Assembly (NCBI GenBank): GCA_964399295.1
Contig: CAYNQD010000001.1
Location: 7,013-71,012 of the forward strand
Length of the DNA stretch: 64,000 nucleotides
Source: an uncultured Candidatus Saccharibacteria bacterium
Lineage (GTDB): Bacteria; Patescibacteriota; Minisyncoccia; Phycocordibacterales; UBA918
Direction: 5' to 3'
A program made the position numbers and the translations under genes. The notes under the pieces were generated by a model, which ran no database searches, was not told the DNA's origin, and saw nothing but the letters and a program-made list of their open reading frames with translations. Positions 3,179 through 46,526 of the stretch are shown in pieces; the first letter of the stretch is position 1; every line of letters starts with the position of its first letter.

Positions 3179-4201
3179 ATGGTTCGTGTAGCAATAAATG
3201 GTTTTGGTCGGATTGGAAGAACTTTCTTTCGTTTGGCTTATGGCAATCCTGATTTTAAAGTGGTGGCGGTTAATGATTTGGGGGACTTAGAAAATTTGGC
3301 CTACCTGCTTGAATATGATTCTGTTTATGGACGCAGTCAATTTAGTGTCTCGCAAAAAGATGGTAAATTGCTAGTGCAAGACAAGGAAGTGGTTTTTGTG
3401 CAAGAAAAGGAACCAAACAAATTGCCCTGGAAAGATTTGAATATTGATATTGTAGTTGAGTCAACCGGCTTCTTCACTACTTATGAAGGTTCAAAATTGC
3501 ATCTTGATGCTGGTGCTAAAAGAGTAGTAGTTACCGCACCCATGAAGGGTGAGCCGATAGCTGGAATTAACGGAGCTACGGTATTGATGGGGGTCAATGA
3601 TGGTGCTTTGGCTACTAGCCAGATTTCATCCAATGCTTCCTGCACCACCAATGCCACCAGTCCGCTGATAGCAATTTTGAAAGAATCAATTGGTATTGAA
3701 AAAGCTGTCCTCAATACCGTCCATGCTTATACCGCGTCACAGACGCTTGTTGACGGCCCTAGTAAAAAAGATTTTCGGGCCGGTCGGGCGGCGGCTATGA
3801 ATATCGTCCCCAGCACCACCGGAGCCGCCATCGCCACTACTTTGGCACACACGGAATTAACAGACAAATTCGACGGTATAGCGATGAGGGTGCCGGTGCC
3901 AGTTGGTTCGATTGTGGACGTGACTTTCATTTCTTCGCGTGATACCTCTGTGGAAGAAGTAAATAAAATATTAGCTGATGCTGCTAAGGATTCTCGTTGG
4001 CAAAATTTATTTGCCGCTACCACCGAACAAATCGTTTCTACTGACATCATCGGCTCACGAGTAGGCTCGATTGCTGACTTGTCGTTTACCAAAGTGGTGG
4101 GTGGTAATCTGGTCAAGGTTTTGGCCTGGTATGATAATGAAACTAGCTACACTCAGACCTTGGTAGAACATGTTAAGGCCGCCGCCAAGCATATCGTTTA
4201 G
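3179..4201 (+). CDS. gap: Glyceraldehyde-3-phosphate dehydrogenase
   Basis: NAD-binding INGFGRIGR motif at the N-terminus. Catalytic ASCTTN motif. Length and order are typical of GAPDH. Confidence 0.93.
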   Translation: MVRVAINGFGRIGRTFFRLAYGNPDFKVVAVNDLGDLENLAYLLEYDSVYGRSQFSVSQKDGKLLVQDKEVVFVQEKEPNKLPWKDLNIDIVVESTGFFTTYEGSKLHLDAGAKRVVVTAPMKGEPIAGINGATVLMGVNDGALATSQISSNASCTTNATSPLIAILKESIGIEKAVLNTVHAYTASQTLVDGPSKKDFRAGRAAAMNIVPSTTGAAIATTLAHTELTDKFDGIAMRVPVPVGSIVDVTFISSRDTSVEEVNKILADAAKDSRWQNLFAATTEQIVSTDIIGSRVGSIADLSFTKVVGGNLVKVLAWYDNETSYTQTLVEHVKAAAKHIV

Positions 4202-7389: not shown

Positions 7390-8394
7390 CTAAACAACAA
7401 TACTAGCTTCGTATCCAGAAGGCTTATTTTTTAGTAAATCTTCAAGTTCATCTCGGGTTAGTAAACCTTTTTGAGCGCCAATTTGTTGCACTACGGACAT
7501 TGAATTGACAGGTCCCCAAGTCAGAGCTTCAGCTGGAGTTTTGCCAAGAGCAATAGCGGTAGTAAAAGTAGAAGCAAAAGAATCACCAGCTCCAGTGCGA
7601 TCAACCGGTGGCTTTGGGTCTGGATACATGGGCATATGCCAAGCTTGGTCATCTTCATCAACCACATAAGCCCCGTGCGGTCCATCAGTAATTACCGGCA
7701 AAACCAAGCCAAATTCTTTTAGCTTTCTGATTAGGGTAGGGACATGTTGTTCATCAGTTTTTAGTAATTCCTGAGCTTCTTCTTTGTTACAGAAGAAGAT
7801 ATCCGTTACTTCATAAAGGTCTTTTAAGGCATCAAAACCAAGCTTTAATTGGAAAGTTCCTGGTTGAAAGACAAGCTTAGTTTCATTATTTTTGATATAA
7901 GAAGCGATCTCGTGATGAAAGGGAATTCCGTCTTCGCCAATGGAAGAAAAGTATAGATACCGCGGCGGTACGGAAAAGTCTGGTAGGGAATAAGGAAAGA
8001 TTTCATGCTTGATTAAAATTGTTCTTTCCGGTCCATAACGCAAAACATAATGATAATTTGTTTTTTTGTTTTCATGCAATTTTACATAATCAGTGTGCAC
8101 ACCTTCGCTTCTCAAGGCTTCCAGACAATCCTTACCATTGCGGTCTTGTCCAAGATTGGCTACTAAAGCCGATTTTAGGCCAAGACGGTGTGCGGATACA
8201 GCCGCGTTGGGTGAATTCCCGACGGCGTTCACAACCTCCACGTCACTAAAAGGTAATTTGCTACCAAATGGCATGTGCAAGGTCATGCGACCAGTGTCCA
8301 TATCTTGGCTAACATCAGCTGCGTCTTTGTTTAACTCTATAAAAGCGTCGATGACAATGTCACCGACAGCTACGAAATCATATTGTTCTGACAT
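7390..8394 (-). CDS. PfkB-family carbohydrate/nucleoside kinase (ribokinase-like)
   Basis: C-terminal PfkB signature GAGDSFASTFTTAIALG. N-terminal GG-like motif AVGDIVID. 334 aa. Confidence 0.75.
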   Translation of the reverse strand: MSEQYDFVAVGDIVIDAFIELNKDAADVSQDMDTGRMTLHMPFGSKLPFSDVEVVNAVGNSPNAAVSAHRLGLKSALVANLGQDRNGKDCLEALRSEGVHTDYVKLHENKKTNYHYVLRYGPERTILIKHEIFPYSLPDFSVPPRYLYFSSIGEDGIPFHHEIASYIKNNETKLVFQPGTFQLKLGFDALKDLYEVTDIFFCNKEEAQELLKTDEQHVPTLIRKLKEFGLVLPVITDGPHGAYVVDEDDQAWHMPMYPDPKPPVDRTGAGDSFASTFTTAIALGKTPAEALTWGPVNSMSVVQQIGAQKGLLTRDELEDLLKNKPSGYEASIVV

Positions 8395-9894: not shown

Positions 9895-9916
9895 CTTTTC
9901 TTGAGGGGAGGCATAC

Positions 9917-9944
9917 TTGCTAAAATATACATATTTGTTATAGT
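9917..9944 (+). promoter_or_regulatory. Sigma-70-type promoter for rpmE-prfA
   Basis: TTGCTA, 16-nt spacer, TATAGT, ending about 12 nt upstream of the rpmE ATG. Confidence 0.4.
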
Positions 9945-9955
9945 GTGGCACACAT

Positions 9956-10228
9956 ATGAAAGCTGAAATTCATCCAAAAAATTATCGACTGGTTATCTTC
10001 CATGATAACTCAAGCGGCGAGCGTTTTCTTATCGGTTCAACCATCAAGACCAACGCTACCGACAAATGGAGTGATGGTGTTGAGTACCCTATTACACGTG
10101 TAGACGTATCCAGCGCTTCTCATCCTTTTTATACTGGTCAGGAGAAGGTTATGGATACGGCAGGTAGAGTGGAAAGGTTTAAAGCCAGAGCCGCGCAGAC
10201 TGTCACTAATAGAAAGAAGAAAGGTTAA
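9956..10228 (+). CDS. rpmE: 50S ribosomal protein L31, type B (no Cys zinc ribbon)
   Basis: [10 protein letters not shown]... start typical of L31. No CxxC pairs, so it is the zinc-independent paralog type. Confidence 0.88.
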
Positions 10229-10231
10229 TGA

Positions 10232-10279
10232 AAAAGACTACTACCATATTGGATACCAATATGGTAGTAGTCTTTTAGT
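10232..10279 (+). terminator. Rho-independent terminator/attenuator after rpmE
   Basis: 18-bp perfect stem agactactaccatattgg / ccaatatggtagtagtct followed by TTTT. Confidence 0.65.
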
Positions 10280-10300
10280 GTATGCGGTAAAATTATACCT

Positions 10301-13252: not shown

Positions 13253-13325
13253 GCCACCTTAGCTCAGTTGGTAGAGCAACGGTTTTGTAAACCGTGGGTC
13301 GTCAGTTCAAGTCTGACAGGTGGCT
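13253..13325 (+). tRNA. tRNA-Thr (anticodon UGU)
   Basis: Cloverleaf folded by hand. Acceptor gccacct/aggtggc, D-arm gctc-agttggta-gagc, anticodon stem acggt/accgt with loop tttgtaa (anticodon TGT), T-arm gtcag-ttcaagt-ctgac, discriminator t. CCA is not encoded. Confidence 0.85.
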
Positions 13326-19548: not shown

Positions 19549-19596
19549 TGTGTATAGTTTAGCATAATCAAAAAGGGGAAGTGCTAGACTAAAACG

Positions 19597-19887
19597 ATGA
19601 AAACTATTATTTTGGCAACGTTTTTTAGTTTAATTTTCTTACCCAGTTATTCTTTGGCTGATAGTGAAGAAAGTTGCGGGGATCTGGTTTATATATACTT
19701 TGATGAGGATGCTCAGCAAAACGAAGAATCTCGAGAACCAATTACAAATTGCTCCAAACCCTTTACGTCACTTTTTTACGGTGATTCCACTTATACAGAA
19801 GACCAAACGCCGGTGCAAGTGGTGTTGGACGACCAGGAAGTTCTACCTGGTGGTCAAATAGACATAAATGGAGAATTAGCCGACTAA
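19597..19887 (+). CDS. Small secreted protein (96 aa, signal peptide, acidic)
   Basis: Signal peptide MKTIILATFFSLIFLPSYSLA. Divergent from paralog A. Upstream of the NlpC/P60 gene. Confidence 0.4.
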   Translation: MKTIILATFFSLIFLPSYSLADSEESCGDLVYIYFDEDAQQNEESREPITNCSKPFTSLFYGDSTYTEDQTPVQVVLDDQEVLPGGQIDINGELAD

Positions 19888-20009
19888 CTTTCCCTGACGG
19901 CAGGGAAGGATATGATTTTAGTTTATACAAAAAAGTCGGGCCGGATTATTATCACGTTGTCATATCGTCGATTGGTTTAGGTGGTTATGAAGACAGTGCG
20001 GTTGTTGCT

Positions 20010-32596: not shown

Positions 32597-35500
32597 TTAG
32601 ATATTTTCAGCTGGCGGCGAGACCGTGCCTGCGAGCGATTTGGCGCGGTCGAGGGCGATGCTGGGTTCTTCATTTCGAATCGTCAATTTGCCTTTGACTG
32701 CGATGCAGTTGTTTGGCACTAAGGTGGCTCTTAGTTCGGTGTAGGTTTTGGGGAAGGCAACCATCTCTATTTGGTCGGTGTGGTTTTCCAGCACGACAAA
32801 AGCCATGCGATCGCCTTTTTTGGTCAACATCTCTCTAACGCTGCTAATCATGCCGGCTGTCACCACCGGAATACCATTGCGGTTGTCCTGCTTAATGCTA
32901 CTTATGGAAGGTCTTTTTTCCAGTTCAGTTTGGTATTCATCAAGCGGATGTCCAGACACATAAACCCCCAGTAGCTCTTTTTCCCAGTTGAGTTTTTGAA
33001 TGGTGGGCATGGGGTCGGTGGTCGCTAAATTGAGAGTGGTGATATTACTTTGACTCATTAGATTAAACAGCGATTCTTGCGCCGATTCTTTTTCGGCCAT
33101 TTGTTCTTTATTGAAAGTCAGCATTAGCTCGACGTTGGCGTACATTTCACCGCGTTCGCCAAAACGGTCGAGAGCACCTGTCAGAATTAGCGCTTCCAGG
33201 GATTTTTTGTTTAAACTTCGATTGTGAACACGAGACAGGAAATCGCTCAGGGAAGTGAATGGGCCGTTACTTTTTCTCTCTGCAATGATGGCATCAGCGA
33301 TGCCTTCACCAAAATTTTTGATGGTGGTTAGTCCAAAACGAATAGTTTTTTTGCCGGGGACGACTGTGAAATCGGAAAATGATTCATTGATATCCGGCGG
33401 CAAAACCTCCACTTCCATTCGTTCACATTCACGAATAATTTCCGCGATTTTTTCAGTGTCGCCAGAGTCGGCAGTGAGTACCGCGGACATATATTCAACG
33501 GGGAAGTTGGCTTTCATGTAGGCGGTTTGGTAAGCTACTCGTCCATAGCTGGCGGCGTGTGCCTTATTAAATCCGTAAGCGGCGAACGGCTCTATCAAGC
33601 TCCACAGCTTATTGGCGATAGCTTCCGATAATTTTCCATAATTAACAAAACCGGTCAAAAGCTTGTCCTTCTCTGCGGCCATCACTTCAGGAATTTTCTT
33701 ACCCATCGCTTTACGCAGCATGTCAGCCTCCAGCCAGCTATAGCCGGCCAGTTCGCGAGCAATCGCCATAACATCGTCTTGATAGGTAATCACGCCATAA
33801 GAACGATCAATGATCGGTTTGAGCCGGGGATCAAGATAGGTCACTAATCCAGGATTGTGTTTGCGCTCAATATATTGTGGGATGGATTCCATCGGGCCAG
33901 GGCGGTAGAGGGCGACCATGGCGTTGATATCGTGAATAGTGGTGGGACGGAGCTGTTTAAGAAAAGCGGTCATGCCGGAGCCGTTGAGCTGAAAGAGTCC
34001 CATAGTCTCGCCTTTGGCAAGGATGTTAAAAGTCTTTTCGTCAGCAATCGGAACGTTTTCAATATCAACCTCAGTACCATGAATCTTTTTCACTCGCTTC
34101 ACCGCGTCAGCCAAAATCGCGAGATTTTTAATGCCCAAAAAGTCAAACTTTAAAAGTCCGACACCGTCCTCGCCGACGCTTTTCATTTCGTATTGAGTGA
34201 TATATTTACCGGTTTTGGGGTCGGGTTGAATGGGGACGAACTGATTTAACGGTTTTGGTGCGATCACGACTCCGGCCGCGTGTACGCCGAGATGCCTCAC
34301 TCGACCTTCAATCTGTTTGGCTAGGTCAATCACCTCGCGCGCTTCGCTGTCTTTTTTGTACAGTTCGGCCAAGTCCGGCTCGATTTCCAGCGCTTTTTTA
34401 ATGGTCATGGGAAAACCCTGGCTACCCATGGGAATGAGTTTGGCGATACGATCGCCCACGGAGTAGGGGTGGCCAAGCGCCCGCGCCACGTCGCGCACCG
34501 CCGCGCGCGCCATCATAGTTCCAAAGGTACCGATTTGAGCTACTTTGTCGCTGCCGTATTTGGTTTTGGCGTATTCAATAATTTCGTCGCGACGATTATC
34601 AGCAAAGTCCATATCGATATCCGGTGCGGACGGACGCTCTGGATTTAGGAAGCGTTCAAATGGTAATTTGTATTCAAGCGGGTCTACATTGGTAATTCCC
34701 AGCACGTAAGTGGTGAGAGAGCCGGCGACCGAACCGCGAATGGTGGTAAGGATTCCACGTTCACGCGCTTCACGCAACAAGTCTCCCACCACCAGGAAAT
34801 ACTTAGCGTAACCTTTATTTTTTATGACTTCCAATTCGTAGTCCAAGCGAGCTTTTACCACCGTGTCTTCCAGAGACATATTTCTCCATTTTACGCCAGC
34901 GTATGAAGTTTCTTGTAGTTCGGCGTCTGGCTCGCGGCCGCTTTTGATTTGATAATCAGGAAAATACCAGTGCGTACCAATTTCAATTTCAACATTGCAG
35001 GCGTTGGCGATTTTTATGGTGTTGGCGACAGCTTCTGGAGTGTTTTTAAAATAGTTTACGGCTTTTTCTTGAGTGATAAAAGAAAAGTTCTCCTCGCTTC
35101 CGTGGTCGCTGGTAGTATCGACTACGCCGCCATTTTGGATTTTGACCATCGTTTCTCTGGCGATACGGTCTTCAGGCTTCAAATAATAAACATCATGCGC
35201 GGCCAAGAGCGGGACATTGGCTTTTTTAGCCAAGGCGATAATTTTTTTCTGATTTTTTTCATGGTCTAATATTTCAGGATGGTGGGTAATTTCCAAATAG
35301 CAATCATCACCAAATAAATGTTTATAAAAATCCAGTCTTTGGCCGGCCTTCTCATCATTTTCTTCTTTGAGGGCTTTGGCTACTTCACCGGCAAAGGAGG
35401 GAATGACGCAGATTAAATCTTGGTGGTATTTTGTCAGCAGTTCTTCATCGAGACGCGGTTTGTAATAAAAACCTTCGGTATTGGAGAGAGTTACCAGTTG

Positions 35501-35827
35501 GATCAGATTTTGATAACCGATAAAAGTTTTGGCTAATAGTACCAAGCGTGCTCGCGGCTTGTCTATCTGCGCGTCTTTGTCGTGGCGGGTGCGGGGAGCG
35601 AGAAAAGCATCTAAGCCAATGATAGGCTTGATGCCTTCTTTGGTGCAGGCTTTATAAAAATCTATCGCTCCATACAAAGCGCCGTTATCAGTGATGGCCA
35701 AAGCCTCCTGTCCGTCGGCTTTGGCCGCCGCCGCTAATTCTTTTGGAGTCGGGAGAGCATTGAGAAGGGAATAATGAGAATGAACGTGCAGGTGAACGAA
35801 ATCAGAAGTAATTAATTTTTCGGACAT
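32597..35827 (-). CDS. dnaE: DNA polymerase III alpha subunit
   Basis: N-terminal PHP domain (FVHLHVHSHYSLLNA). Polymerase core, OB-fold C-terminus. I prefer the start at 35827 (MSEKLITSDFVHLHVHS); the ORF-track ATG at 35848 is also possible. Confidence 0.92.
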   Translation of the reverse strand: MSEKLITSDFVHLHVHSHYSLLNALPTPKELAAAAKADGQEALAITDNGALYGAIDFYKACTKEGIKPIIGLDAFLAPRTRHDKDAQIDKPRARLVLLAKTFIGYQNLIQLVTLSNTEGFYYKPRLDEELLTKYHQDLICVIPSFAGEVAKALKEENDEKAGQRLDFYKHLFGDDCYLEITHHPEILDHEKNQKKIIALAKKANVPLLAAHDVYYLKPEDRIARETMVKIQNGGVVDTTSDHGSEENFSFITQEKAVNYFKNTPEAVANTIKIANACNVEIEIGTHWYFPDYQIKSGREPDAELQETSYAGVKWRNMSLEDTVVKARLDYELEVIKNKGYAKYFLVVGDLLREARERGILTTIRGSVAGSLTTYVLGITNVDPLEYKLPFERFLNPERPSAPDIDMDFADNRRDEIIEYAKTKYGSDKVAQIGTFGTMMARAAVRDVARALGHPYSVGDRIAKLIPMGSQGFPMTIKKALEIEPDLAELYKKDSEAREVIDLAKQIEGRVRHLGVHAAGVVIAPKPLNQFVPIQPDPKTGKYITQYEMKSVGEDGVGLLKFDFLGIKNLAILADAVKRVKKIHGTEVDIENVPIADEKTFNILAKGETMGLFQLNGSGMTAFLKQLRPTTIHDINAMVALYRPGPMESIPQYIERKHNPGLVTYLDPRLKPIIDRSYGVITYQDDVMAIARELAGYSWLEADMLRKAMGKKIPEVMAAEKDKLLTGFVNYGKLSEAIANKLWSLIEPFAAYGFNKAHAASYGRVAYQTAYMKANFPVEYMSAVLTADSGDTEKIAEIIRECERMEVEVLPPDINESFSDFTVVPGKKTIRFGLTTIKNFGEGIADAIIAERKSNGPFTSLSDFLSRVHNRSLNKKSLEALILTGALDRFGERGEMYANVELMLTFNKEQMAEKESAQESLFNLMSQSNITTLNLATTDPMPTIQKLNWEKELLGVYVSGHPLDEYQTELEKRPSISSIKQDNRNGIPVVTAGMISSVREMLTKKGDRMAFVVLENHTDQIEMVAFPKTYTELRATLVPNNCIAVKGKLTIRNEEPSIALDRAKSLAGTVSPPAENI

Positions 35828-35914
35828 GATTATTGGACAGTATAGCATTTATCGGTAGTCTCACCAAAGTCTTCAGCAGCGTTTTTTATATGCTACGATA
35901 TAAAAAAATTTCTT

Positions 35915-36556
35915 ATGCATGAATGGATAATTGGAGTGGATGAGGTTGGCCGCGGGCCTTTGGCGGGGCCGGTGGGTGTGGGGGTCGTCTTGGTGTCGGC
36001 GGATTTTGACTGGGATTTGCTTAAGGGGGTGGGTGATAGCAAGCGGGTGAAGCCGGAAAATCGCGAAGCGATTTTCCGGCTTACCAAAGCTCTAAAGAAA
36101 AAACACCAGCTTGATTACGCGGTGGTCATGGTCAAAGCCGCGGTGATTGATGATATAGGAATTGTGCCAGCAATTAGCCAGGCGACGGCTAAAGCTTTGA
36201 AAAAAGTCACCGCCGCTTTATCTGCAATTGATTTTGAGAAGATGATAGTTAGGCTGGATGGGGGATTAAAAGCCCCGACAATTTATAAAAATCAGGAGAC
36301 AATTATAAAAGGAGATGATAAAGAGTTGATTATCGGGCTAGCTTCAATCGTGGCAAAAGTGACGAGGGATGAATACATGAAAAAAATATCATCGAAAGCA
36401 GAATTTTTGCCTTATGACTTTGGGAAGCATAAAGGTTATGGTACCAAAAAACACCGCCAAGCAATTGCCAAGCATGGCTTGTCGTCAGAACATAGGCAAA
36501 GTTTTTGTAGAAATATCAGTTTTGACCACATTCAGTTGCAATCTCCGCCAAAATAG
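35915..36556 (+). CDS. rnhB: Ribonuclease HII
   Basis: N-terminal IIGVDEVGRGPLAGPV (the DEVGRG catalytic motif). Confidence 0.88.
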   Translation: MHEWIIGVDEVGRGPLAGPVGVGVVLVSADFDWDLLKGVGDSKRVKPENREAIFRLTKALKKKHQLDYAVVMVKAAVIDDIGIVPAISQATAKALKKVTAALSAIDFEKMIVRLDGGLKAPTIYKNQETIIKGDDKELIIGLASIVAKVTRDEYMKKISSKAEFLPYDFGKHKGYGTKKHRQAIAKHGLSSEHRQSFCRNISFDHIQLQSPPK

Positions 36557-36581
36557 CCTTAAAATCAACAAGTTTTTGCCC

Positions 36582-36609
36582 TTGACAAATATTTTAAATC
36601 TGCTATACT
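36582..36609 (+). promoter_or_regulatory. Strong sigma-70-type promoter (TTGACA-16-TATACT) in the rnhB-rpmF intergenic region
   Basis: Perfect -35 TTGACA at 36582-36587 and near-consensus -10 TATACT at 36604-36609. No protein-coding ORF follows for about 350 nt. Confidence 0.55.
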
Positions 36610-36615
36610 AGAGAA

Positions 36616-36920
36616 AGTTCATTCGAATTTTATACGAGATTGGCAGAGTTAGTTTATTGAGATGTGATTTTGTCCATTGGATAATTTCTTTCCTCCAGTT
36701 TTATGAAAACGGCGACCGACTGTGAGCGGACTGTGCATAAAATAACGAAACCATTCTTGTTTTCACCAGCTGTTGCTCGGCTTTGCGACAAAAAACTTGT
36801 CTACTGATAAAGGAATCAGTAAGACTTTGTCAAAAATACCTTGACGCACGCTGGTGAGCGAAAAGCGCTAACGACATCTTAATTAACTTTGAGATTTGGT
36901 CGTTAGCGCTTTTATTATTT
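36616..36920 (+). ncRNA. Candidate ~300-nt non-coding transcript or long regulatory leader ending in a strong intrinsic terminator/attenuator just upstream of rpmF
   Basis: Bounded by the promoter above and a 15-bp perfect stem (aaaagcgctaacgac / gtcgttagcgctttt, 36861-36913, extendable to about 19 bp with a bulge) followed by a UUUUAUUAUUU tract. Only a 35-codon ORF lies inside. No RNase P, tmRNA or SRP motifs were found by eye. Confidence 0.35.
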
Positions 36921-36964
36921 CAGGCGGTTGCTTTTTTACAAGGATTTGCTATAGTTTCGCCATT

Positions 36965-37237
36965 ATGGTAATTCGAATGCGACACACGCGGTCACATACC
37001 GCCAACCGCCGCTCTCATCACGGGCTGGAAGCTCCTGATTTGGCAGTGTGTAAAAATTGTGGGGCTTTACACCGGCCGCATCACATGTGTCTGGACTGTG
37101 GTTTTTACAAAGGGCGAGTAGTGATTGATTTAGCAGCTAAAAAGAAAGACAGAGAAGAGCGTTTGCGGGTTAAGCGTGAAGCTAGGAAAGGTGATAATAC
37201 TGAGGAATCAGCTCCCGCCAAGCCAGCTACAGTTTAA
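36965..37237 (+). CDS. rpmF: 50S ribosomal protein L32 with Lys/Arg/Glu-rich C-terminal extension
   Basis: MVIRMRHTRSHTANRRSHHGLEAPDLAVCKNCGALHRPHHMCLDCGFYKGRVV matches the L32 core (RRSH...HH...CG.Y.GR.V). The ORF-track start at 36896 adds an improbable hydrophobic leader. Confidence 0.8.
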   Translation: MVIRMRHTRSHTANRRSHHGLEAPDLAVCKNCGALHRPHHMCLDCGFYKGRVVIDLAAKKKDREERLRVKREARKGDNTEESAPAKPATV

Positions 37238-38279: not shown

Positions 38280-38990
38280 ATGGAAGAGCGAAATATAGAT
38301 ACTGATTTGCAAGCACTACAAAAAATTCTGGGCGTTGATTTTAAAGACGTGGCTTTGTTGCTGTCTGCCGTCACTCATCGTTCATATTTGAATGAACATC
38401 GGGAAGCTACTTGGGATCACAATGAGCGGTTGGAGTTTTTGGGGGACGCGGTTTTGGAATTGGCGGTGACGGATTTTCTTTTTCGCAAATACCCGGAAAA
38501 GCCGGAAGGTGAATTGACGGCGGTGCGCGCGGCCATTGTAAATACCAATTCTTTGTCTTCCGCCTCTGAGCAGCTGGATGTTAACCAATATTTGTTGATG
38601 TCTAAGGGTGAGGCTAAGGATGAAGGTAGAGCTAGACAATATATTTTGGCTAATGTTTTTGAGGCTTGTATTGGGGCGATATATTTGGATCAGGGTTATG
38701 AAAAAGCCTGTGAATTTATCACCGGTCGGCTACTGGGCAACACCGATGAAATCGTACAGAAGCGTTTGTGGCAGGATCCTAAGAGTCGTTTTCAGGAATT
38801 GGCACAAGAGAAAGCTTCTGTCACACCTACCTACGAAACCATTTCTCAGGACGGCCCAGATCATGATCGGGTTTTTACCGTTGGGGTTTTCTTGAGGCAT
38901 GAGAAAGTGGCGGAAGGTAAGGGGAGGTCAAAACAAGAAGCTGAGCAGCAGGCGGCTTTGCAGGCGGCTGTCGCTAAAGGTTGGGTTTAG
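38280..38990 (+). CDS. rnc: Ribonuclease III
   Basis: RNase III signature ERLEFLGDAVLELAVTDFLF. C-terminal dsRBD (KSRFQELAQEK...GKGRSKQEAEQQAA). Confidence 0.9.
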   Translation: MEERNIDTDLQALQKILGVDFKDVALLLSAVTHRSYLNEHREATWDHNERLEFLGDAVLELAVTDFLFRKYPEKPEGELTAVRAAIVNTNSLSSASEQLDVNQYLLMSKGEAKDEGRARQYILANVFEACIGAIYLDQGYEKACEFITGRLLGNTDEIVQKRLWQDPKSRFQELAQEKASVTPTYETISQDGPDHDRVFTVGVFLRHEKVAEGKGRSKQEAEQQAALQAAVAKGWV

Positions 38991-44913: not shown

Positions 44914-44942
44914 TTGACCAAATCTAATCTATCTGCTAATCT
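44914..44942 (+). promoter_or_regulatory. Sigma-70-type promoter for rpsP (TTGACC-17-TAATCT)
   Basis: Lies inside the 5' over-extended ORF-track call (its TTG start is the first 3 nt of the -35), supporting the shorter rpsP start. Confidence 0.4.
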
Positions 44943-44958
44943 AGCCCCACTTATGTTA

Positions 44959-45366
44959 ATGATGCGTTTACAAAGAGTTGGTCGTAAAAATGACCCTTCA
45001 TATCGAATTGTGGTGGTTGATAAAAGAACCGGCCCTAAGAGCAATAAGCATATTGACCATCTTGGTTTTTATAGTCCCAAGCTAGGCAAGATTCAGATTG
45101 ATGGAGAAAAAGCCAAGCATTGGCTGAGTCATGGCGTGCAGGCTTCCGGCACGGTACACAATATGCTGGTGTCACAGAAGGTGATTGAAGGCAAGAAAAT
45201 AAATGTTCTACCTAGGAAGTCTCCAATCATCGACGAAGCCAAGCTGAAGGCAGAAGCGGAAGCCAAGGCCAAAGCTGGGGCTGATAAAGCCACCGCTGAA
45301 GCCAAAGCCAAAGAAGCCGAGCCTGATACGACAGAGACTCCAGAAGCAGAAGTCGTAGCTGCTTAA
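44959..45366 (+). CDS. rpsP: 30S ribosomal protein S16 with Ala/Lys/Glu-rich C-terminal extension
   Basis: MMRLQRVGRKNDPSYRIVVVD matches the S16 N-terminus (MVxIRLxRxG). C-terminal KAEAEAKAKAGADKATAEAKAKEAE low-complexity tail. Confidence 0.82.
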   Translation: MMRLQRVGRKNDPSYRIVVVDKRTGPKSNKHIDHLGFYSPKLGKIQIDGEKAKHWLSHGVQASGTVHNMLVSQKVIEGKKINVLPRKSPIIDEAKLKAEAEAKAKAGADKATAEAKAKEAEPDTTETPEAEVVAA

Positions 45367-45395
45367 ACCCGTCCTCAGGCTGGAATTTGTACAAA

Positions 45396-45456
45396 CAACA
45401 CCCGTGTGCATATACACGGGTGTTGTGTTGACGTGGACGGAGGGTTTCCGTATTAT
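45396..45456 (+). promoter_or_regulatory. Terminator-like hairpin after rpsP followed by promoter TTGACG-17-TATTAT for the KH-domain gene
   Basis: Stem aacacccgtgtg / cacgggtgtt (45396-45425), then -35 at 45428-45433 and -10 at 45451-45456. Confidence 0.4.
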
Positions 45457-45515
45457 TACTTAAGCAACGCCGAGTTTTGGCGCATGCTTACCAGAATAGC
45501 TAAGAATTTGATTTT

Positions 45516-45869: not shown

Positions 45870-45948
45870 TTTTAGGTTTGGGTAAAGGAAACAAAACCAT
45901 CACCGGCTCCAAGTCGGTTGTGGTTTTTTTTATGTTATAATCCACTTA

Positions 45949-46221
45949 ATGGAAATCATTAGTGTTGTTACAGTCGCTCTATCACTTATAGTTACTGGGC
46001 TTGGTTTGACGGCTCAGGTTAGAAAGAATAAAGAGAGAAAAAGTATGGAGGGATTGTCATCCTTCTATTTTTTTGTTCTCGCGATTTCTTATTCATTTTG
46101 GGTTGTCTATGGAATTGTGTCTAGTGACTGGGTCATTATTCTTCCGATGACTATAGGTGCTCTCATGTCTTGGATTGTGGTGTCGCAATTCTTTATTTAT
46201 AAAAAACACCCTGAAGATTAA
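45949..46221 (+). CDS. SemiSWEET-like 3-TM mini transporter (PQ-loop family)
   Basis: 90 aa with three TM helices. WVVYGIVSSDWVIILPMTIG parallels the SemiSWEET core WFVYGILRSDLPIILANVVT. The TM1 motif is LTAQVRK (cf. LPQVLRV). An extended -10 TGtTATAAT lies upstream. Confidence 0.5.
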   Translation: MEIISVVTVALSLIVTGLGLTAQVRKNKERKSMEGLSSFYFFVLAISYSFWVVYGIVSSDWVIILPMTIGALMSWIVVSQFFIYKKHPED

Positions 46222-46526
46222 AAAAGTAAAACATACTACCAACTTCATAATTCCCGGCTCTAAAGATTCGCTTACTTCTAATTAAGCATGGACTTAGGTC
46301 TTTACATAAACAAGAAATCCGAGATTTTATAAAAGACAATTTAAACATCGAACCACGTATAAGAGATTTTGCAATTAAGCATTTGCGGTATTGTTATGAA
46401 GAGGAAAATAATAGACTTAATTTTGAAAATGAGTGCCGGGAATTTTTGGCTGCGGTTCAGAATTGTGTAGAAAATTAAAGGTCTGTGCCTTTTTTAAAAT
46501 CATTATTTCTGTTATAAATAATAACC

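Follow-up and report, generated by a model that had tools for sequence, protein, structure and literature searches.

Within the 64,000-nucleotide stretch of contig CAYNQD010000001.1 analysed here (the window), the spacer between rnhB, encoding RNase HII, and rpmF, encoding ribosomal protein L32, holds a unit that we regard, with good confidence, as an independent gene for a structured non-coding RNA of approximately 305 nt. In brief, the unit has promoter and terminator signals of its own, it lacks coding potential, its fold is kept by compensatory changes among relatives, and it is independent of rpmF. It belongs to no catalogued RNA family, and its layout is that of an ordinary orphan small RNA (sRNA) gene. 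The original prediction, made from the sequence of the window, was an orphan strong promoter driving approximately 300 nt of non-coding sequence that ends in its own terminator. That description stands, and the suggested identity of a lineage-specific sRNA fits the own promoter and terminator, the lack of a conserved open reading frame (ORF), the covariation and the narrow range. The two other identities put forward, a 6S-like RNA and a leader of rpmF, are not supported. Our best reading is an accessory, lineage-restricted RNA in a variable rnhB-rpmF hotspot.

The signals that delimit the unit are the following.

36582 to 36609, plus strand: sigma-70-type promoter of the unit, with the -35 box TTGACA at 36582-36587, an A/T-rich spacer of 16 nt and the -10 box TATACT at 36604-36609
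36615 to 36920, plus strand: predicted primary transcript of about 305 nt, its start placed 6-8 nt past the -10 box and its end at the U tract
36861 to 36920, plus strand: intrinsic terminator T, a hairpin of 15 + 7 bp at 36861-36913 followed by the tail UUUUAUUAUUU

The perfect TTGACA, the 16-nt spacer and the TATACT are present as originally described. A TG two bases upstream of the -10 box (TGcTATACT, 36601-36609) further makes this an extended -10 promoter. It is placed 25 nt past the rnhB stop codon, matches the consensus at 11 of 12 positions in addition to the TG, and has the top score in an 8-kb scan. The pattern TTGACA-N13-TGnTATAnT, with at most one mismatch allowed, has a single site in the window; 0.10 sites are expected, and at least one match was obtained in 10 of 100 shuffles. 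The two arms of the terminator (36861-36875 and 36899-36913) are 15 nt each and 100% complementary, and seven more apical pairs bring the stem to 22 bp, with a hairpin energy of -29.0 kcal/mol (z = -6.9). As claimed before, the tail runs to 36920 and ends 45 nt upstream of the rpmF ATG. A consensus terminator scanner missed this hairpin because it allows only loops of up to 8 nt.

From these signals we suggest that the housekeeping RNA polymerase holoenzyme would start at approximately 36615-36617 and stop in the U tract at 36914-36920. The rnhB gene has no terminator of its own, and read-through transcripts from rnhB would therefore also end at the terminator of the unit. The RNA would then accumulate as a stable, abundant molecule acting in trans.

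The gap sequence is identical in four independent assemblies, and gene callers leave it empty in each of them. The contigs with the exact sequence derive from runs in the range SRR16797977-SRR16797999, namely SRR16797977, SRR16797978, SRR16797981 and SRR16797999. The best matches of the L32 and RNase HII of the window are all metagenome-assembled genomes of the Parcubacteria/Paceibacteria type, within the candidate phyla radiation (CPR).

We searched approximately 185 fetched loci, referred to below by L numbers, with the unit by blastn and nhmmer, first the set anchored on L32 and then contigs with RNase HII homologues. Across these loci the unit was found in four groups only, A to D. Group A is the window, and the units of the three other lineages (L171; L166, L167, L170 and L172; L001, L004 and L185) also sit downstream of rnhB.

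Group A, window: 36615-36920
Group B, L171: 1259-1584
Group C, L167: 1523-1823
Group C, L170: 1687-1986
Group C, L172/L173: 3197-3497
Group C, L166: from 2365, the unit being cut by the contig end
Group D, L001: 2672-2950
Group D, L004 (= L174): 907-1198
Group D, L185: about 3528-3835

The interior of the gap gave no blastn match among the L32-anchored loci, and L001 and L004 of that set share the promoter at equal distance. The promoter of the window heads the units of L001, L004, L166, L167, L170 and L172, and variants in the -10 box or the spacer are found in L171 and L185. Most units open with TTGACAAA-N-(A/T)AAAnCTGCTATACT. They measure 279-326 nt across the relatives, contain no conserved ORF and end in a terminator whose base reads (A)AGGCGYUG...CARCGCCUUUU, followed by a U-rich tail. 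A hidden Markov model built from L171 alone, with the promoter excluded, finds the window at 36649-36919 with E = 2.6e-6, and the search in the opposite direction gives E = 8e-4. RNase HII that is 79-82% identical and the blocks UUGAGAU, GCGRAC, AAUCAA and CCAG/CUGG link group C to group B. Group D is tied to the others by synteny, promoter, terminator base, an ACGAGAU/AUCUUGU helix and the P4 helix described below.

The region 36612-36925 folds on the plus strand to -97.4 kcal/mol, against -69.5 ± 4.7 for shuffled sequences (z = -6.0, none of 100 shuffles as good); the minus strand gives z = -3.8. For the predicted transcript the minimum free energy (MFE) is -95 to -97 kcal/mol. Units of the other groups also fold much better than their shuffles, with z = -4.6 for L001, -4.7 for L004 and -5.2 for L167. 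Among the truly gene-free gaps of the window, the rnhB-rpmF gap is the folding outlier. In the window RNA the elements upstream of T are as follows.

36615 to 36630, plus strand: P0, a 5' hairpin AAGUUC-AUUC-GAAUUU, from an independent MFE fold
36634 to 36760, plus strand: domain 1, a multibranch domain closed by the long-range, interrupted helix P1, with P2-type hairpins and P3 inside
36634-36643 with 36751-36760, plus strand: P1a/b
36648-36651 with 36743-36746, plus strand: P1c
36657 to 36704, plus strand: best-conserved block in comparison with L171, made up of UUGAGAUGUGAUUUUgUCC (36657-36675), the P2 hairpin and UCUUUCCUCCAGUUUUAU (36687-36704)
36698 to 36743, plus strand: P3 hairpin, with the base UAUG/CAUA and an apical GCGgAC motif
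36762 to 36858, plus strand: domain 2, closed by P4, which pairs UUCACCAGC (36762-36770) with GCUGGUGAG (36850-36858)

The order P0-P1[P2,P3]-P4[..]-T recurs in independent MFE folds of groups A, B and C, with P1, P4 and T only 0-3 nt apart in every sequence. Group D folds to the same plan with an extra outer helix and without P0. The 5' hairpin is also predicted in L171 and group C, with the sequence of P0 diverged. The GAGAU core of the conserved block of domain 1 is found in groups C and D as well. The arms of P4, 8 nt and perfectly complementary, contain CACCAG/CUGGUG. The interior of domain 2 forms three hairpins in the window and differs in size among relatives; the whole domain has approximately 97 nt in the window and 94 nt in L171, against approximately 45 nt in groups C and D.

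A covariance model of domain 1 was used to realign the six sequences of groups A to C with Infernal. In this alignment 88.7% of the cells are paired and 11 of the 44 pairs are changed on both sides, 7 of these double changes lying in P1. Column shuffles gave 3.7 ± 1.5 double-changed pairs, and none of 500 reached 11. When the partners were slid by 1-3 columns, 32-44% of the cells were paired and 0-4 pairs were compensatory. Much of the sequence of the unit has changed between related genomes, but compensatory changes keep its helices. A hand-anchored table of 36 positions in P1a/b/c, P3, P4 and T over 5-7 sequences has 221 of 225 cells canonical and 15 compensatory positions, against 66-101 of 225 cells and 0-3 positions in slid controls. 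Leaving out the terminator, 22 positions remain, with 126 of 127 cells canonical and 8 positions compensatory. The 12 positions of P1 are canonical in all sequences, with 7 compensatory; the 14 positions of the terminator include 7 that are compensatory across 7 sequences; and P3 has three compensatory pairs between the window and L171. In P4, CCAG/CUGG is kept in groups A to C, and CUAG/CUAG in group D represents a compensatory change from C-G to U-A. The 11 G-U cells in conserved helices indicate that it is the plus strand that is under selection, and the U tract supports the same strand. Plain MAFFT alignment followed by RNAalifold misses P1 because of one-column register shifts, which were solved by the Infernal realignment and the hand anchoring.

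Several points weigh against this interpretation. The covariation tests draw on only about four independent lineages (8 distinct sequences), and the pairing counts are inflated because both the Infernal and the hand-made alignments were adjusted to the structure. Inside both domains, size and branching vary from group to group. No sequence or covariance model detected the group D units, and group D membership is therefore the least certain. L165, L169, L168, L011 and L002, with RNase HII 61-71% identical to that of the window, have no unit at the locus. The transcript, its ends and its stability are deduced from sequence, and the protein-binding mechanism considered further below is putative and weakly supported.

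The claimed ORF of 35 codons and the GACTGTG repeat are found as a 34-codon ORF and as copies at 36718 and 36729. We judged the ORF not to be a gene.

36703 to 36807, plus strand: 34-codon ORF (MKTATDCERT...)

It is not conserved across the groups. At the corresponding place L171 has an unrelated ORF of 15 aa, 1-nt indels disrupt the ORFs of group C (21 aa, 43 aa and none), and L001, L004 and L185 differ by 1-nt indels. When every ORF of 12 codons or more, on either strand of seven units, was compared across the groups, only trivial matches of 4-9 residues over conserved nucleotides appeared. The ORFs in the gap had no Pfam match. Translation of the gap in six frames showed no decayed-gene signal, the frames not having been run against large protein databases. 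The tblastn searches of the gap with more than 100 small ORFs that 80 relatives have at this spot gave nothing better than E of approximately 0.07. The non-coding claim therefore holds over these six-frame, tblastn and Pfam comparisons, and a decayed protein gene was rejected for want of residual similarity.

The same results make it very unlikely that the unit is a non-functional remnant, that is, a decayed accessory gene or an inserted cassette that kept its promoter and terminator, or that it is a gene for a small protein encoded by the 34-aa ORF. Such an origin would suit the variable rnhB-rpmF spacer, which elsewhere holds small-protein genes of similar length (Cys-rich, membrane or secreted), and it would suit the patchy occurrence of the unit; a missing Shine-Dalgarno (SD) site is also no argument against coding in this genome. 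However, the neighbouring small proteins left no trace in tblastn or Pfam, no ORF is common to the groups, ORFs within groups are interrupted by 1-nt indels, and promoter, terminator and ORF-less state persist in four lineages that are 30-40% apart in RNase HII. Compensatory changes that hold long-range helices are, moreover, unlike decay, and this disfavours a remnant.

We also considered whether the unit is a repeat, a mobile element or of phage origin. There is no second copy in the 64-kb window, no terminal inverted repeat in the unit apart from the hairpin, and no paralogue detected by the domain 1 covariance model, the best other match having E = 1.4. A repeat or mobile element was rejected on these grounds. 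The promoter pattern was found on 10 contigs in IMG/VR, all of them ordinary strong promoters before protein genes and none similar to the RNA, and a phage-borne element was likewise rejected.

The unit immediately precedes rpmF and shares its strand; the setting is as follows.

32597 to 35848, minus strand: dnaE
35915 to 36556, plus strand: rnhB, encoding RNase HII
Between 36556 and the ATG at 36965: the rnhB-rpmF gap, 408 nt
36928 to 36964, plus strand: promoter of rpmF, outside the RNA, with the -35 box TTGCTT at 36928-36933, the TG-extended -10 box TATAGT at 36950-36955 and TTCGCCATT, followed by the ATG at 36965
ATG 36965 to 37237, plus strand: rpmF, encoding L32
37340 to 38242: gene for a NusB-NUDIX fusion
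38280 to 38990: rnc

The gene-free gap has the length originally reported. A blastn comparison of the gap with 80 related loci showed that the widely conserved part is the last 36 nt only, TTGCtTTTTT...TTTGCTATAGTTTCGCCAcT-ATG. We take these 36 nt to be the promoter of rpmF, since variants of the -10 box (TATTAT, TATATT) keep its -10 character and, on inspection, not a hairpin potential. The promoter is nearly invariant in approximately 160 Paceibacteria loci (L001-L164), in which L32 is 57-83% identical, and is better conserved than the L32 protein. Its pattern is unique in the window, with 0 sites expected. With the end of the -10 box 9 nt away from the ATG, a leader of 0-3 nt is implied. 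This is consistent with a genome in which an SD-like motif (-20 to -4) precedes only 1 of the 36 genes of the window. At many of these 36 gene starts a -10-like box precedes the ATG by 8-12 nt (e.g. 5392, 7390-8394 on the minus strand, 10301, 54489 and 60279), and the genome seems to rely largely on leaderless mRNAs or mRNAs with very short leaders. A box of similar kind, TTGC...TGTTATAGT, lies 11 nt upstream of the ATG of the probable rpmE gene (approximately 9947-10230).

Because this promoter lies downstream of the terminator, rpmF has a transcription start of its own. The Kaiserbacteria-like loci L086, L087, L091 and L007, more distant relatives with RNase HII approximately 52% identical to that of the window, have an rnhB-rpmF spacer of 66 nt with a near-identical rpmF promoter and no unit. 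Other genes intervene between the unit and rpmF in group C and between rnhB and the unit in group D, which indicates that the unit travels with the rnhB side of the spacer and not with rpmF. We conclude that the unit is not a cis regulator of rpmF.

The earlier candidate of a long autoregulatory leader or attenuator of rpmF is not supported, on these grounds: the conserved promoter between terminator and ATG, the relatives with a 66-nt spacer and no unit, and the group C gene with a TTGACA motif of its own between unit and rpmF. More broadly, a cis-acting leader would have the strong promoter read through a regulated terminator into rpmF or the genes downstream. A long structured RNA that ends in a terminator directly 5' of a ribosomal protein gene, on the same strand, does resemble ribosomal-protein leaders, attenuators and riboswitches. 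Unlike these, the unit is followed by the separate, near-invariant rpmF promoter with its 0-3 nt leader, it is absent where Kaiserbacteria-type loci keep that promoter in 66 nt, and in group C the next gene encodes a different protein of 133-152 aa with its own promoter-like motif. It matches no riboswitch, T-box or leader family in Rfam, and on inspection there is no convincing antiterminator against the -29 kcal/mol hairpin, the sole competitor being a hairpin of 3-4 bp. We consider cis regulation of this kind highly improbable. A riboswitch or T-box was rejected, there being no Rfam aptamer or T-box match and no conserved, substantial alternative pairing with the terminator.

Some complementarities at the locus should be mentioned here. 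The conserved junction block AGUUUAUUGAGAUGU (36651-36665) is complementary at 13 of 15 positions to the 5' apical strand of the terminator (36874-36888), and 36657-36666 nearly duplicates its 3' apical strand UUGAGAUUUG (36889-36898). Pairs of the type GAGAU/AUCUY are found again at the tip of the terminator in every group; the long-range complementarity is lost in L171. The pairing of 36651-36665 with 36874-36888 was rejected as an antiterminator, as it is lost in L171 and the G+C-rich base of the stem would stay intact. The palindrome AUUCGAAU of the P0 loop and stem (36621-36628) recurs in codons 3-5 of rpmF (GUA AUU CGA AUG, 36971-36979); this potential pairing of 8 nt is absent from the other groups and is probably due to chance.

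A search of the whole 64-kb window against Rfam at the gathering threshold found only the tRNA at 13253. The region 36450-37050 had no match in Rfam 15 even at E <= 10, and L171, L167, L001 and L004 had none at E <= 1. ARAGORN found no transfer-messenger RNA (tmRNA) or tRNA-like gene in the unit, and inspection of the sequence showed no RNase P CR-I/CR-V, no domain IV of the signal recognition particle (SRP) RNA and no tRNA-like end. The unit thus matches no catalogued family, and the earlier impression by eye that RNase P, tmRNA and SRP consensus motifs are missing agrees with the Rfam and ARAGORN results. With neither family model or ARAGORN match nor core motifs, RNase P, SRP RNA and tmRNA were rejected. 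For 6S RNA, which had been named as a candidate, the model RF00013 is unmatched; every lineage has three serial domains in 279-326 nt (approximately 305 nt in the window), not one hairpin of approximately 160-200 nt, and no rod with a central bubble, and 6S RNA was rejected too.

A very divergent housekeeping RNA (6S-like, an RNA polymerase-binding RNA like Ms1, RNase P, SRP or tmRNA) would explain the very strong orphan promoter, as in stable RNAs, and a labile sequence with a kept structure, as in 6S RNA. By Rfam, no 6S, RNase P, SRP or tmRNA gene is present in the 64-kb window. The mycobacterial Ms1 RNA is approximately 300 nt long, close to the size of the unit, and 6S RNA (SsrS) and Ms1 share with it a probably very strong promoter and quick sequence divergence over a kept secondary structure. 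The unit differs from them in having no Rfam match and no single long hairpin with a central bubble, and in its absence from close relatives. Its three serial domains with unpaired 5' and 3' ends are also unlike SRP and tmRNA, and the RNase P and SRP core motifs are missing on inspection. Absence from the locus in equally close relatives would be odd for an essential RNA, unless the gene has moved. We think a housekeeping RNA in disguise very improbable.

Two further classes of RNA can be compared with the unit. Stand-alone sRNAs, of the RsaE/RoxS type or other orphan intergenic ones, resemble the unit in being independent intergenic genes with a strong sigma-70-type promoter, a terminal hairpin and U tract, no conserved ORF and a narrow phylogenetic range. 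They typically have 50-200 nt and a seed, whereas the unit has approximately 305 nt in three structured domains, no seed common to all its lineages and a host almost devoid of SD sites. By its size and its several domains the unit recalls the larger structured RNAs of unknown function that comparative genomics has brought to light. Of these, the raiA motif RNA, OLE, ROOL and GOLLD share with it a multi-domain fold supported by covariation and a restricted taxonomic range. In Rfam 15 the unit has no match to any of them; OLE, ROOL and GOLLD are larger, and the unit has been seen so far in only four lineages of one Paceibacteria clade.

How the RNA might work can only be suggested tentatively. 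It may act through its folded shape, in a protein-binding, scaffold, ribonucleoprotein (RNP) or sequestering role, and not through a single-stranded seed. We lean towards such a shape-dependent role, which is weakly supported and which we would call possible, short of likely, because selection is visible on helices and architecture, because the four groups have no single-stranded motif in common at the same position, and because the near lack of SD-like motifs removes the usual target of C-rich seeds.

The alternative is a riboregulator that pairs in trans with target mRNAs through the exposed UUGAGAUGUGAUUUU or UCCUCCAG (36657-36697), with the remaining fold providing stability. A promoter and terminator of its own are the classic layout of base-pairing sRNAs, and the stand-alone unit fits it; the block best conserved between the window and L171 lies in the domain 1 junction and is partly unpaired in the MFE folds; and group D has the C-rich CCUCC as well, in the apical portion of its terminator hairpin. 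Against seed pairing, the four groups share no single-stranded motif in the same position, CCUCC is absent from the equivalent junction of group C, a genome with so few SD-like motifs offers little for an anti-SD-like seed to bind, and three domains in approximately 305 nt exceed typical seed-type sRNAs. We therefore hold base pairing to be unlikely. A mimic of the anti-SD sequence (CCUCC, 36692-36696) was dropped, being not conserved in position in group C and set in a genome that hardly uses SD sites.

More speculatively still, and with little probability in our view, the RNA could be the first sign of a new class of abundant, RNP-forming RNAs of approximately 300 nt in Paceibacteria with a global role, of which relatives lacking the unit would carry copies moved elsewhere. 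In these minimal genomes, largely without SD sites and with leaderless mRNAs, it might fill the role of 6S or Ms1 at the RNA polymerase, or it might be a decoy that binds a protein specific for the 16S 3' tail, given the CCUCC-containing loops of groups A, B and D.

The 3' half of the unit is invariant among the three species of group D, whose RNase HII proteins are 76-89% identical, and the 5' half varies. The invariant part (L001 2820-2950, L004 1069-1198, L185 approximately 3700-3830) comprises the P4 hairpin and the apical terminator, which carries CUCCUCCUUAUCA, like the 16S 3' tail.

To our knowledge, CPR bacteria combine tiny genomes and very short intergenic spacers with almost no described non-coding RNAs beyond the universal ones. 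Our literature search on non-coding RNAs or leaderless promoters of CPR/Patescibacteria found nothing relevant. Several related lineages nevertheless devote approximately 340 nt to a strongly promoted, ORF-less predicted transcript supported by covariation, a concrete candidate for a function carried by RNA in uncultivated organisms with few protein regulators. What might naturally be taken for an rpmF leader is not one, as rpmF is served by its own promoter. The practical value is modest until a function or expression is shown, the family being narrow and dispensable at the locus.

RNase HII of the unit-bearing loci is 60-68% identical to that of the window, and no locus below 60% has the unit. 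The unit is confined to one clade and patchy there, and, as equally close relatives are without it at the locus, it is dispensable or able to move. L018 and L066 also have a gap without ORFs upstream of rpmF, and both gaps look unrelated to the unit.

Evidently, small accessory genes have a hotspot in the rnhB-rpmF spacer. Many Paceibacteria encode Cys-rich proteins of 60-100 aa (CxxC...C...C) there, for example at L037 2619-2894, L016 2636-2833, L058 2605-2904, L006 913-1113 and L013 810-1076. They form at least two blastp clusters, have no Pfam match and may be an undescribed zinc-ribbon-like family. In group D only, the space between rnhB and the unit holds a gene for a conserved protein of 62-78 aa that has a single hydrophobic segment at its N-terminus (MRILLFLL...YRYFDLDR...).

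L001, 2307-2543: group D membrane protein gene
L004, 587-775: group D membrane protein gene
L185, 3204-3392: group D membrane protein gene

The protein of 133-152 aa of group C is encoded after the unit and before rpmF (L167 approximately 1840-2371, L172 approximately 3510-4045), and its hydrophobic N-terminal stretch was read by eye as a signal peptide. The TTGACA promoter-like motif of its gene overlaps a long palindrome, ACACCACATTAATGGTGT / ATTAATGTGGTGTT, that looks like an operator or hairpin.

Elsewhere in the window, the other strongly folding gap, 9895-10300, contains a gene read by eye as rpmE (90 aa) with its terminator. The stretches 45045-45515, 19549-20009 and 45870-46526 are also without a long ORF. 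The first of these folds well on both strands (z of approximately -3.9 and -4.7), has no Rfam match and overlaps an ORF of 150 aa at 44914-45366. The NusB-NUDIX hydrolase fusion downstream of rpmF is 300 aa long and is kept in all relatives examined, including L081, L168, L171, L172 and L185, always with rnc following it.

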